From contig DRIG01000085.1 in NCBI GenBank assembly GCA_011052815.1, forward strand, positions 1,110 through 65,109: a stretch of DNA of 64,000 bases, written 5' to 3'. The stretch comes from a candidate division WOR-3 bacterium (lineage in GTDB: Bacteria; Hydrothermota; Tepidihabitantia; SM23-42). A model generated the notes under the pieces. The model saw nothing but the letters and a program-made list of their open reading frames with translations, did no database searches and was not told the origin of the DNA. Positions 13,124 through 16,510 of the stretch are shown here, in pieces. Both the position numbers and the translations under genes were made by a program. How positions within the stretch are numbered: position 1 is the first letter of the stretch; every line of letters starts with the position of its first letter.

Positions 13124-13570
13124 ATGAAGAAAAAAGTATTTATTTTCATAATCGTCATCCTTCTGATTTCGTGTTCGGCGATTAAAGAACGCCTGGCAGT
13201 CAAAGAGTGCAAATTTTCTCTTCAATCAGTGGCGCCCCACAGTTTCACCTTTAAGAACCTGAAACTCGATTTCAAGATCAAAGGTGAGAATCCCAATAAG
13301 GTTGATGCGGTTCTGGACAGGCTTACCTACACATTCTTCGTCAATGATCAGGATGTTTTTTCCGGCACGACAGGGAAAGGGATCAAGATACCATCAGGCA
13401 AGTCCACGAGTTTCCTGACCACGATCACCTTAGAATACAGTAAGATAGGCGAAGCATTGAGTACAGCGATTAAACTTCAAAAGGCTTCCTATAAAATAAA
13501 AGCAAAGGCATACATCAATACAATTATTGGTGAAATAAGTTATCCGATTGAACTTGAGTTAAAAAAGTAG
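13124..13570 (+). CDS. Lipoprotein with a LEA_2 / water-stress (WHy)-like domain
   Basis: Signal peptide plus lipobox (LLISCSA). About 125-aa beta-rich domain resembling LEA-2/NDR1-HIN1 family proteins. Confidence 0.4.
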   Translation: MKKKVFIFIIVILLISCSAIKERLAVKECKFSLQSVAPHSFTFKNLKLDFKIKGENPNKVDAVLDRLTYTFFVNDQDVFSGTTGKGIKIPSGKSTSFLTTITLEYSKIGEALSTAIKLQKASYKIKAKAYINTIIGEISYPIELELKK

Positions 13571-13734: not shown

Positions 13735-14505
13735 ATGAAAAACTATAAACTCCTTTTTTACCTTCTTTTGCTTACCAGTCTGTTCCTGCTTGCGGGCTGC
13801 TGTTATGATGGAGCAGACAATGAACCGCCTTCTGTTCCGGTCGGGCTGCGGTCGATCACCGGTGACGGCGAGGTGCTGCTTGTGTGGTATGAAAACACCG
13901 AGCCGGATCTCGCCGGGTATCGCATCTACCGTAGTTTGACGCCGGGCGGTTATTACTATGAGATAGGAGAAACAAATCTTGATTACTTTCTGGACTTCGG
14001 ACTTGTCAACGGTGAAACCTATTATTACGCGATAACCGCTTTTGATATTCATGGAAACGAGAGTGACCTTTCTTACGAAATAGTATATGATACACCGCGT
14101 CCTGAGGGGTATGACGAAAAACTTTTTGACTACACAGAATATCCAGACTACGCGGGCTGGAATTTCAGCGCTTATTCAATCGTCGGATACGACCATCCTG
14201 CCTGTGATTTTTATTTCGGGTATGACGATTATAATGAAGCATTTTACTTTTATGTCGCAAGACCAGGAGGGTTGATTCAGGATTTCGGTTATACCGAATC
14301 TCTGGATGAGATAACCTATGCTCCGGAAAACGGTTGGTCATCAACCGGCATAGTTGAGGCGATCCTGGGCCACACATATGTATTCTGGACATGGGATAAT
14401 CATTTTGCGAAATTTCGGGTAACTGCAATCGGGTCGGATTATGTGGTCTTTGACTGGGCGTATCAGATCGACCCGGGTAATCCCGAGTTGGTGATTAATA
14501 AATAA
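13735..14505 (+). CDS. Lipoprotein containing a fibronectin type III domain
   Basis: Lipobox LLAGCC. FN3 signature ...PPSVPVGL...GYRIYRS...YYYAITAFDIHGNES. Confidence 0.55.
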   Translation: MKNYKLLFYLLLLTSLFLLAGCCYDGADNEPPSVPVGLRSITGDGEVLLVWYENTEPDLAGYRIYRSLTPGGYYYEIGETNLDYFLDFGLVNGETYYYAITAFDIHGNESDLSYEIVYDTPRPEGYDEKLFDYTEYPDYAGWNFSAYSIVGYDHPACDFYFGYDDYNEAFYFYVARPGGLIQDFGYTESLDEITYAPENGWSSTGIVEAILGHTYVFWTWDNHFAKFRVTAIGSDYVVFDWAYQIDPGNPELVINK

Positions 14506-14517
14506 GAGGAGGTCAAG

Positions 14518-15495
14518 ATGAAACGTCTATTATTATTATTATTAGCCGCCATACCGTTATTCGGTTTCAGTGTCAATTTCATATTTTGTGATTATGACTA
14601 TTATGAAGATGAATACTGGTATGACGAGTACTGGGATGATTACTACTGGTATGACGGTTACTGGGTGTATTATCCACATGGATACTACTGTGTACATTAT
14701 GTCTGGTGGTATCCCTGGTGGTGGGATTATTATTGGTGGAGGGCACATTGGTGCCATCACTTCCACTGGGATTTCTTCTACGGTGGATTTTATGTGGTAT
14801 GGTATGAAAACGGCTGCTGGTGGTTCAGGCCCAGATACGGCAGATGGGTGAAGTATAAACTGCCCTATTCATATTATGAAATAAGACACCGTGCCAGAAA
14901 ACATGGTATCTATCTACCGGAAAAACCGCCGCGCGAATTGAATATACCGTACAAAGAGCACGAAATAAAGAAGCTCATTAAACAGAAAGATCCTGAGTTG
15001 TTCAAGAAGGTAGAGAAGAAACATAAAGACGGCACCCTTGAGAAAATGAGAAAAGAATATGATACCAGGGTAAAGCAGGAGATTGTGAAGAAAAATATCG
15101 AATACAAGAAGACAGTTAAGAAAGGAAATTATACAAAGGATTTTGAGAAAAAGGGGTATGATGTTAATAAATGGCAGAAATCTTCTGAGGATAAACATAC
15201 CAAAGATTTGTATTATAAAAGCTCGTATGATGACGATGAGCGCAAGTCGCACATCGTGAAAGAGAAGAAGAGTAAGCCGACGCTCCGGAAAAAGGGTTCG
15301 TCCGATGAACACGATGATCAAGAGTATTATAAAAAGAAGAAGCCCAAGAAATTCGTCTACGAGAGTTATGAAGAGAAGAGAAGCCATAAATCGGATGGTG
15401 ATGCCGGTCCTTCGAAATATAAGAAGAGTAAATCTTCCTATAACGACAGGAACGATCGGGGATATAATTCCGATCATCATAAAAAGAAGAGGTAA
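14518..15495 (+). CDS. Secreted low-complexity protein with an extremely Trp/Tyr/Asp-rich core (about 45% aromatic) followed by a Lys/Glu-rich C-terminal half. Novel, no family assigned.
   Basis: Signal peptide MKRLLLLLLAAIPLFGFS, then ...DYDYYEDEYWYDEYWDDYYWYDGYWVYYPHGYYCVHYVWWYPWWWDYYWWRAHWCHHFHWDFFYGG..., then a KK-rich region. The GGAGG Shine-Dalgarno precedes the start. Confidence 0.5.
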   Translation: MKRLLLLLLAAIPLFGFSVNFIFCDYDYYEDEYWYDEYWDDYYWYDGYWVYYPHGYYCVHYVWWYPWWWDYYWWRAHWCHHFHWDFFYGGFYVVWYENGCWWFRPRYGRWVKYKLPYSYYEIRHRARKHGIYLPEKPPRELNIPYKEHEIKKLIKQKDPELFKKVEKKHKDGTLEKMRKEYDTRVKQEIVKKNIEYKKTVKKGNYTKDFEKKGYDVNKWQKSSEDKHTKDLYYKSSYDDDERKSHIVKEKKSKPTLRKKGSSDEHDDQEYYKKKKPKKFVYESYEEKRSHKSDGDAGPSKYKKSKSSYNDRNDRGYNSDHHKKKR

Positions 15496-15498
15496 GTC

Positions 15499-16122
15499 AT
15501 GTTACTCACGACTTTACTTGCATTACTCACTTTATACAATGGTGCGCCGGACATCGAGATATGGGTTGATCGGGACGAACCCGTTTATCAGGCGGGTGAA
15601 AATTTGAAAATCTTTTTCCGCGTTGACCAGGACTGCTATGTCGCGATCTATGATATTGAGGTCGGGGGGAGGGAGACTCTTCTCTTTCCCCCTGAACAGG
15701 AGGACGGCTGGGTGGAGGCAGGTCATATTTATGAGCTGCCTCCTGAGAACGCCGATTATGACTATGTCATAAGCGGTCCTGAAGGGGTCGAAACGGTCAT
15801 CGCACTGGCTTCGACCGAGCATCCACCTGTACTGGACGATGAAGAAGAGAACATCAGCCGGATGAGTTTAAGTATTCATATTGAAGAACCGGAACCGGCA
15901 AAGCTGCGCATTGTCTCGACTCCGACATACGCTCGAATTTATCTGACCAATGTAGAAACCGGCGAAAAAGAATATATCGGCAGAACACCGCGCACCATGG
16001 TTATAAGACCGGGTGAATATATCGTGAAAATCAAAAAGCCGGGTTTTCATTCATTGACGCGCAGGATCTGGCTCGAACCGGGCGATCGACGCAGGGTTTT
16101 TGTCAAACTGATTCCCTATTGA
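15499..16122 (+). CDS. Secreted protein with a DUF4384-like N-domain and a C-terminal PEGA domain
   Basis: C-terminal ...LRIVSTPTYARIYLTNVETGEKEYIGRTPRTMVIRPGEYIVKIKKPGFHSLTRRIWLEPG is a PEGA-type beta-sandwich. The N-terminus has the DUF4384 pattern (IWVDRDEPVYQAGENLKIFFRVDQDCYVAIYDI). Confidence 0.5.
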   Translation: MLLTTLLALLTLYNGAPDIEIWVDRDEPVYQAGENLKIFFRVDQDCYVAIYDIEVGGRETLLFPPEQEDGWVEAGHIYELPPENADYDYVISGPEGVETVIALASTEHPPVLDDEEENISRMSLSIHIEEPEPAKLRIVSTPTYARIYLTNVETGEKEYIGRTPRTMVIRPGEYIVKIKKPGFHSLTRRIWLEPGDRRRVFVKLIPY

Positions 16123-16159
16123 CATGAGCAGCAGGTTCATTATAATCAAGGAGTAAATT

Positions 16160-16510
16160 ATGAAGAGATTGATGATATTGATATTGATCGCGGGTTTAAT
16201 GTTTGCGGTAAAACCGGTGCCGCGGAAAGACCATAACAAAGAAAGCAAACAGAAGTCCAAATTCAGTATCGAATCAGTTATAAAAGAACTCAAAAAGATC
16301 GTCGACAAGAAAGGCGATAAAGAAAAGGATGATCACTTTCAGGACGCCGATTCCAATGGAGTAAACGACCAGCGTGAAGATGATTTTCAGAAGATAAAGC
16401 AGTTGAAGACGAAACATAAGGACAAGGACTCCAGGGGGACCCAGAAGAAGACCGTGAAAAAGAAGTCAACGGTCAGTCCCAAAAAGAGTAAAGAGAAAAA
16501 AGACAAATAG
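16160..16510 (+). CDS. Small secreted lysine-rich protein
   Basis: Signal peptide followed by a K/D/E-rich low-complexity region. Own promoter TTGACA-N17-TATAAT at about 16118-16146 and an AAGGAG Shine-Dalgarno. Confidence 0.4.
   Translation: MKRLMILILIAGLMFAVKPVPRKDHNKESKQKSKFSIESVIKELKKIVDKKGDKEKDDHFQDADSNGVNDQREDDFQKIKQLKTKHKDKDSRGTQKKTVKKKSTVSPKKSKEKKDK

Follow-up and report, generated by a model that had tools for sequence, protein, structure and literature searches.

A Trp/Tyr-rich, presumably exported protein specific to candidate division WOR-3 and its conserved four-gene cassette

The described systems closest to the gene considered here are the DUF6600 proteins (PF20245), which typically comprise a FecR domain, the DUF6600 domain and a long basic tail; the aromatic-rich exported bacterial proteins with WXXGXW/YXWGXW repeats (lipoproteins, PF12779) or with choline-binding-type hairpin repeats; and, by analogy of function only, Braun's lipoprotein (Lpp) and domain II of TolA, that is, small proteins of the envelope in which a Lys-rich region is extended and the basic C-terminal residue is functionally important. 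Our literature search on DUF4384, DUF6600, DUF3300, WXXGXW, and WOR-3 combined with tryptophan-rich proteins yielded no functional information, and WOR-3 itself is a phylum without cultured members, its cell envelope being all but unstudied. Here we analyse a gene, called AROM below, from a stretch of 64,000 nucleotides of a candidate division WOR-3 bacterium (contig DRIG01000085.1; the whole stretch is referred to as the window). AROM is new both as a sequence family and as a predicted fold, being an orphan family without a Pfam entry, and by its design it is a variant of an existing uncharacterised class, the DUF6600-type combination of an aromatic block with a basic tail.

14518..15495, + strand: the AROM gene, coding for a 325-aa exported Trp/Tyr-rich protein of a WOR-3-specific orphan family (open reading frame list, homolog searches, selection ratios)
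14506..14512, + strand: Shine-Dalgarno sequence GAGGAGG, read from the sequence, 5 nt before the ATG at 14518

An earlier reading of the window, made from the sequence only, had proposed this open reading frame and quoted its product, and both matched exactly. The Shine-Dalgarno sequence it had named is real; it starts right behind the stop codon of the upstream gene, here called g256, a position that constitutes translational coupling of AROM.

A search of 5.8 billion proteins yielded 104 clusters of AROM homologs (E from 1e-205 to 1e-26), among which all clusters with an organism name belonged to candidate division WOR-3 and every annotation was "hypothetical". An exhaustive HMMER (phmmer) pass over 1.84 billion representatives produced 15 matches, all of which belong to this family as members or fragments, with scores dropping off sharply below them and no remote relatives. 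The profile of residues 17-210, when compared to the 5.8 billion proteins, likewise retrieved family members only, the range between E=1e-25 and E=1 being empty. In a scan of one genome per GTDB species, the gene was found in 41 genomes; those with a named phylum were WOR-3 or Ca. Stahlbacteria, save for one older label, "TA06 DG_78".

The absence of a known family, claimed in the sequence-only reading, held in all comparisons: neither the whole protein nor 26 family members nor six isolated aromatic segments gave a match in Pfam and NCBIfam scans, the aromatic segments alone matched no family even at Pfam E<=10, and the best match of the sequence profile to the PDB (E 0.32) was at the level of noise. 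The UniRef names of two homologs, DUF5667 (P0022) and DUF3300 (PF11737; P0039), were not reproduced at Pfam E<=10 and look like spurious or outdated automatic annotations.

Codon-level comparison of the window gene with 27 orthologs yielded ratios of nonsynonymous to synonymous changes (pN/pS) that rise from 0.14 in the aromatic core and 0.18 in the acidic leader to 0.31 in the helical part and 0.62 in the tail, these values being rough due to saturation of synonymous sites. AROM is a real gene under purifying selection.

The composition of the protein is extreme. Residues 24-112 include 25% Tyr, 19% Trp, 10% Asp, 7% His and 4% Cys, so that W+Y make up 44% and W/Y/F 49%, in agreement with the earlier description of a segment dominated by W, Y, D, H and C. 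The count of 39 W/Y per 89 residues compares to a maximum of 22 in any other window reading frame of at least 200 aa, and given the background W+Y of 5.6% in these other frames, the binomial probability is about 2e-25. Residues 136-325 are 26% Lys, with the net charge of +23. As the only repeat at the DNA level is a 15-bp array of 3.4 copies (14614-14664) coding for YW[YD]D[DE], the composition is not a by-product of repetitive DNA. At the protein level, no repeats were found beyond the YWYDE pentapeptides of the leader.

A database protein, P0001 (346 aa, 99% identical), parts from the window AROM after residue 300; past the divergence it follows the frame of the window +1 reading frame 15305-15607 ("...IIIKRRGK.CYSRL..."), the affected region being about 15418-15607. 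This difference in the tail is due either to a frameshift or indel that separates the strains or to a faulty assembly of one of the sequences.

The anatomy of the protein was derived from an alignment of 95 AROM sequences and an AlphaFold2 (AF2) model built on that alignment, and comprises five parts.

14518..14565, + strand: signal peptide, Sec-type, residues 1-16 (column conservation, by inspection)
14566..14658, + strand: acidic-aromatic leader, residues 17-47 (model confidence, 15-bp array, alignment)
14659..14853, + strand: aromatic core, residues 48-112 (alignment, AF2, pN/pS 0.14)
14854..15138, + strand: helical part of the folded domain, residues 113-207 (alignment, AF2, pN/pS 0.31)
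15139..15495, + strand: disordered basic tail, residues 208-325 and the stop codon (alignment, AF2, pN/pS 0.62)

The N-terminus starts with M-K-R followed by nine L/I/A residues, Pro13 (94 of 95 sequences) and L-F-Ala16 (88 of 95; Gly16 in the window). By inspection, these form the basic n-region, the Leu-rich h-region, the helix breaker and the small residue at -1 expected of a signal peptidase I substrate. Hence the export signal noted previously is retained, and, judging from the conservation pattern, Sec export with cleavage after the conserved Ala/Gly16 (P-L-F-A|F) seems more likely than cleavage before Cys24; export itself we infer from the type of the N-terminus. A lipoprotein was considered and rejected, as Cys24 is present in only 33 of the 95 members (Tyr in 32, Asn in 14), is preceded by F-I-[YF], and there is no lipobox.

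The leader carries the pentapeptide repeat YW[YD]D[DE] and has the net charge of -10 in the window and -8.6 +/- 1.7 over the family. It is predicted to be disordered, the AF2 confidence measure (pLDDT, predicted local distance difference test) being below 50 for residues 16-45. The aromatic core, on the other hand, has a length of exactly 65 aa in all 95 members, with the W/Y/F content of 48 +/- 2% and 21% Trp, and contains 18 invariant residues (P53, G55, Y57, C58, P66, W67, W73, W78, F86, G90, Y92, G99, W101, W102, R104, P105, R106 and G108). Few natural domains that one may come across are likely to be richer in Trp. Residues 113-207 form a segment of 95 aa in nearly all members, with invariant P116, Y119, L133, P134, P159 and G172, and helices are predicted at 119-128, 147-157, 159-170 and 173-207.

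Since the pLDDT is 85-98 over residues ~65-200, the model places the aromatic block in a single folded domain with the initial 95 residues of what had been called the lysine-rich half. According to the model, it is a globule of ~140-150 residues, where the aromatic block is combined with three K/E-rich helices, in a mixed helix/hairpin fold with only two short hairpins. Foldseek found no match of this model in PDB or BFVD. A confidently predicted structure without a solved counterpart is of interest for studies of protein folding and for design.

The tail, on the contrary, is variable. Its length ranges from 84 to 190 aa and the majority identity over the 95 members is only 27%; it contains 25% K/R, 17% D/E and 12% hydrophobic residues, with the mean net charge of +11 (range -5 to +32), and for most of residues 217-325 the pLDDT is below 50. 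The final residue is Arg in 86 of 95 proteins, often as K-K-R or N-K-R. Thus, of the approximately 200 residues described from the sequence as K/E-rich low complexity, positions 208-325 are indeed variable and predicted to be disordered, whereas 113-207 are conserved, invariant in length and predicted to be helical. The proposed layout of an aromatic core plus a K-rich half is replaced by a signal, a disordered leader, a single globular domain and a basic tail.

The cysteines of the core follow a distinct pattern. Cys58 is invariant and Cys76 is present in 93 of 95 members; the two proteins lacking the latter (Ala76 in the window, Ser76 in the other one) both retain Cys79. In 12 members there are just two cysteines in the core region, which necessarily are Cys58 and Cys76. 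As judged from these columns, the pattern would fit a structural disulfide or a pair of metal ligands. The window protein is the only one of the 95 with Ala76 (codon 76, 14743-14745), and we consider it a real variant, since it is also present in the independent 99%-identical contig coding for P0001; together with the kept Cys79 it suggests that, within the C-x-x-C segment, Cys58 can change its partner. At alignment positions 24, 35, 45, 88/89 and 100, Tyr and Cys alternate, which requires a single-base TAY/TGY change. The number of cysteines per protein varies from 2 to 11, and both odd and even totals occur.

AROM is a part of a cassette of four genes. In the window these are AROM and three of the genes listed here, the first one in the list, LEA_2, being a frequent upstream neighbour.

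13124..13570, + strand: LEA_2 lipoprotein-like gene (Pfam E=3.6e-14)
13735..14505, + strand: g256, lipoprotein with an FN3 domain and a second beta-sandwich (lipobox, AF2, Pfam-type scans)
15499..16122, + strand: gene for a DUF4384 + PEGA protein of ~205 aa (Pfam E=4e-20 and 5e-9)
16160..16510, + strand: fourth cassette gene, small Lys-rich exported protein (ortholog comparison; 116 aa in the window, ~115-130 aa in the family)

The names given earlier to these neighbours (LEA_2, FN3 lipoprotein, DUF4384 + PEGA, K-rich 116-aa protein) all hold. The order g256, AROM, DUF4384-PEGA, small protein, on the same strand, was observed in each of the 44 AROM loci with enough sequence, and the intergenic gaps in the window and in loci L001-L003 are 1-12 nt. 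As the flanking genes vary among loci (e.g. in L003), the four genes form a conserved unit. The run of five secreted genes that had been suggested as a module is thus confirmed as a conserved envelope module with a different boundary: it comprises four genes, and LEA_2, found upstream at only about half of the AROM loci, is a facultative neighbour and not a part of the conserved core.

The first gene, g256 (~256 aa), always lies directly upstream of AROM and is the most conserved member of the cassette (62-79% identity). Its product has an invariant Cys22 within an L-x-G-C lipobox, and in the AF2 model (pLDDT 90) it comprises an FN3 domain and a second beta-sandwich. The DUF4384-PEGA gene is always the next one downstream of AROM, starting 3 nt past its stop codon. 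All its orthologs have a short hydrophobic N-terminus of Met and ~12-15 hydrophobic residues lacking a basic n-region (15499-15560 in the window), which is best read as an atypical export signal, conserved across the phylum.

The fourth gene encodes a protein with a signal or anchor sequence, linkers rich in Lys, and an EF-hand-like loop that is near-invariant, D-x-D-S-N-G-V-N-D-Q-R-E-D-D. Among 23 orthologs the only strongly conserved element is D-x-F-x-D-x-D-S-N-G-V-N-D-Q-R-E-D-D-F-Q-K-I-K, a putative Ca-binding loop of EF-hand/Excalibur-like type. A perfect sigma-70 consensus TTGACA-16-TATAAT is located at 16119-16146, within the end of the DUF4384-PEGA gene and just upstream of the fourth gene, and hence the latter may have its own promoter.

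All four cassette products have hydrophobic N-termini, and no enzymatic domain was found in any of them by Pfam and NCBIfam scans. Being present at 44 of 44 loci (41 species genomes) and lacking a recognisable enzyme, the cassette is a candidate for a lineage-specific envelope structure.

The g256 family is much larger than that of AROM, with 1454 clusters over several phyla, KSB1 and Hydrothermia being among the lineages represented. Beyond WOR-3 proper, the gene directly 3' of g256 was of one of two types, DUF4384 (5 loci) or FecR + DUF6600 (8 loci). The partners of the former type are 320-430 aa long, starting with the DUF4384 domain and having a long basic tail, and at least two of the five have a Tyr/Cys/His-rich middle block. 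The latter, from Hydrothermia-like bacteria and a second lineage, have a W/Y/G block of ~100 residues and a basic tail of 200-300 residues. Thus g256 and its partner (AROM, FecR-DUF6600 or a DUF4384 fusion, all with basic tails) appear to be an undescribed conserved gene pair, and the three interchangeable partners tie AROM to the large uncharacterised DUF6600 and DUF4384 families, whose roles may thereby become accessible to experiment.

The similarity to DUF6600 proteins is in the design. They also are exported, with a W/Y block of ~65-100 residues and a net-basic disordered tail of 100-550 residues, and in Hydrothermia-like lineages they occupy the same position 3' of the g256 FN3 lipoprotein, the Pfam match of this positional equivalent of AROM being at E=3.7e-27. 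At least 560 relatives of the DUF6600 domain were found in a metagenome scan, and nearly all of 42 sampled proteins not cut by a contig end have a long net-basic disordered tail. Some local motifs may be aligned (RRYGRWIYV with RPRYGRWV, EGHWVYRVG with DGYWVYYPHG, and EPWGWVPY with PWWWDWY, the DUF6600 variant given first), RYGRW and GxW being common to both.

At the same time, AROM has neither a FecR domain nor the Gly-rich periodicity of WGW/YGW hairpins, and it differs by conserved Cys and His, a fused helical subdomain and an acidic leader; it is confined to WOR-3, whereas DUF6600 is widespread in metagenomes from soil and elsewhere. In Pfam scans at E<=10 of the window protein, 25 other members and six isolated aromatic segments, no DUF6600 match was found. 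Comparison by hhalign with an alignment of 43 DUF6600 sequences yielded the probability of 8-12% (pairwise E 0.0025-0.004 over 12-48 columns), values probably inflated by the composition bias, and with a single DUF6600 sequence, 0.1%. Hence it is defensible, by design and context, to call AROM a positional and architectural analogue of the DUF6600 proteins, homology being unproven.

Many DUF6600 proteins from soil metagenomes end with [DN]GG-x-x-K-[KR]-[DN] (e.g. GGHVKRDH, GGKSKKD, GGHSKKD; L062-L129), and, as in AROM, a basic C-terminal signal is kept at the end of an otherwise unconserved tail.

The KSB1-like DUF4384 partners share with AROM the location 3' of a g256 homolog, the Tyr/Cys/His-rich middle and a long basic tail ending with K/R. 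They differ in the domain order, and their aromatic block is either missing or much reduced in length. A separate gene immediately after AROM encodes the DUF4384 domain in WOR-3, so that the WOR-3 version is split over three genes. Homology between AROM and these proteins was rejected (hhalign probability 0.1-0.8%).

Of the other described systems, the GxYVVWYxxGxWW hairpin of AROM (residues 90-105) resembles one unit of the WXXGXW or choline-binding-type repeats. However, unlike PF12779 proteins, AROM is not a repeat array, having predicted helices and two short hairpins, and no PF12779 match was found by Pfam at E<=10, including the isolated aromatic segments. With Lpp and TolA there is no sequence or fold relationship, and AROM itself, in contrast to Lpp, is not a lipoprotein. 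Lpp is attached to peptidoglycan through its C-terminal Lys; as the terminal residue of AROM is Arg and not Lys, similar cross-linking by an L,D-transpeptidase is unlikely.

Functional amyloids, such as CsgA and FapC, differ from AROM as well: it has no Q/N/G-rich repeats, its AF2 domain is a globule of the mixed alpha/beta type, and no CsgG or FapF genes were found in the cassette. An amyloid role, one of several suggested in the sequence-only reading, is disfavoured by the confident globular model, and the others (metal binding, mineral templating, adhesion) are conjectural.

Considering its composition, predicted structure and gene context, we tentatively suggest that AROM is a non-enzymatic envelope scaffold or tether, a possibility which we would stop somewhat short of calling probable. 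It is based on the hydrophobic N-termini of all four products, the lipobox of g256, the lack of an enzymatic domain and the invariant operon, as well as on the other partners that follow g256 in sister lineages and share the design of AROM, with an aromatic or Cys/His block joined to a basic tail.

In this scheme AROM would be an exported structural subunit of a four-protein envelope module specific to WOR-3. Sec export with cleavage near residue 16 would yield a mature protein of three parts: a disordered acidic-aromatic leader, a compact domain (~48-207, confidently modelled from ~65 to ~200) and a basic tail of ~120 residues. The 65-residue Trp/Tyr/Phe block would make up much of the domain core, being held by a link between Cys58 and Cys76 (or Cys79) or by a metal site, and would pack on the three amphipathic K/E-rich helices. 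The globular domain could then dock on the co-translated partners, that is, the membrane-anchored FN3 lipoprotein and the DUF4384-PEGA protein, with the basic tail reaching out to a polyanionic component of the envelope (a peptidoglycan-associated polymer, lipopolysaccharide or phospholipid head groups), so that the module would act as an envelope tether or spacer. Binding of the tail to an anionic surface, also suggested previously, is plausible; the binding of partners, the tail ligand and the physiological role are inferred. A role in the structure of the envelope, likely as it is, would not by itself be surprising.

Several alternatives can be considered. The aromatic domain itself could bind glycans or peptidoglycan, if the block is highly diverged from the W/Y/G beta-hairpin blocks found in DUF6600 and WXXGXW-repeat proteins or has converged on them, with sugars stacking on the aromatic rings and the tail adding avidity. 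This overlaps with the tether hypothesis, the difference being that ligand binding is assigned to the aromatic domain and not to the tail. Carbohydrate-binding modules use exposed Trp and Tyr, and AROM occupies the position of FecR-DUF6600 directly 3' of g256, has local motifs in common with DUF6600, and follows the layout of all sampled DUF6600 proteins, an aromatic block with a basic tail. We nevertheless consider this variant rather unlikely, as neither the whole protein nor the isolated aromatic segment matches DUF6600 or WXXGXW families at E<=10, the hhalign probability with the 43-sequence alignment is just 8-12%, and the model is a mixed helix/hairpin globule and not an array of beta-hairpin repeats; besides, if most aromatic residues are buried in the core, few are left for ligand stacking.

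Binding of metals or other cations, for sequestration, delivery or the control of mineral or scale, would involve a site formed by Cys58, Cys76, (Cys/His79), His80 and His81, whereas the leader, acidic and rich in Tyr/Trp, would interact with cations or mineral surfaces, and the small partner would add its Ca-binding loop. The conserved Cys58, Cys76, His77, His80 and His81 leave a metal site open: in addition to the invariant Cys58 and Cys76 (93/95), His80 is present in 91, His81 in 79 and His77 in 74 of the 95 members, position 79 is Cys or His in 82, the leader is acidic in all members (-8.6 +/- 1.7), and the loop DxDSNGVNDQRE of the fourth gene product is near-invariant. Yet position 79 is Val or Ala in the remaining 13 members, the Cys58/Cys76 pair is equally well explained by a structural disulfide in an exported protein, AROM matches no known metal-binding family, and the conserved cassette includes no gene for a metal transporter or chaperone. 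Thus, metal binding as the function of AROM is unlikely.

A broader version of the scaffold hypothesis is that the ~140-residue domain is a new fold with a hydrophobic core made largely of Trp and Tyr, and that AROM represents in WOR-3 a class of envelope proteins which is widespread but unrecognised (an aromatic block with a long basic disordered tail and an FN3 lipoprotein partner, including DUF6600 and some DUF4384 proteins of other phyla), and whose members tether or glue envelope layers by cation-pi and electrostatic contacts. As a whole we regard this as a long shot; if true, the function of AROM, once solved, would also explain what the DUF6600-type proteins do, which number hundreds to thousands.

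It is very improbable that AROM forms a self-associating cation-pi "glue", where the acidic-aromatic leader and the aromatic surfaces would bind the Lys/Arg tails of other molecules, including the Lys-rich fourth protein, to make an envelope-associated gel, sheath or adhesive layer similar to that of mussels, whose adhesive proteins are Tyr/Lys-rich. Each member does have disordered ends of opposite charge (about -9 at the N-terminus and +11 at the C-terminus), the Trp and Tyr content is extreme, and the cassette encodes a second Lys-rich disordered protein. However, the argument is purely one of composition, the net charge of the tail spans -5 to +32 among the members, and there is no architecture of the repeat or amyloid type.

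The segment C76-H-W-C79-H80 could be seen as a CXXCH site for c-type haem, with the Trp/Tyr array serving for electron or hole hopping. The exact CXXCH is present in 65 of the 95 members, and His80 (91/95) and Met177 (79/95) are candidate axial ligands. True cytochrome c families keep CXXCH essentially invariant, whereas here it is missing in 30 members (13 CXXHH, 9 CXXVH, 2 CXXAH, one AXXCH, which is the window protein, one SXXCH, and four others); there is no cytochrome match by sequence or fold, and no haem-maturation genes in the cassette. Given that CXXCH is not invariant, we rejected this variant as barely credible.

Finally, a chance open reading frame in repetitive or low-complexity DNA, or a frame called wrongly, suggested by the short 15-bp tandem array and an antisense reading frame of 188 aa at 14914-15480, opposite AROM, is refuted, leaving it next to no probability, by more than 100 homolog clusters with invariant residues and constant domain lengths, the in-frame pN/pS gradient of 0.14-0.62, the Shine-Dalgarno sequence and synteny in 44 loci, there being no better gene model on the antisense strand, as the sequence-only reading had also held.

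At four of the five KSB1-like loci, late flagellar genes (FlgN; FliW-CsrA twice; FliD-FliS) directly precede g256 and its DUF4384 partner gene, at 3839-4225 in L045, 3847-4602 in L047, 2824-3564 in L048 and 1-2325 in L050. This was not seen in the WOR-3 loci; in the KSB1-like ones it hints at a link to flagellar or envelope assembly.

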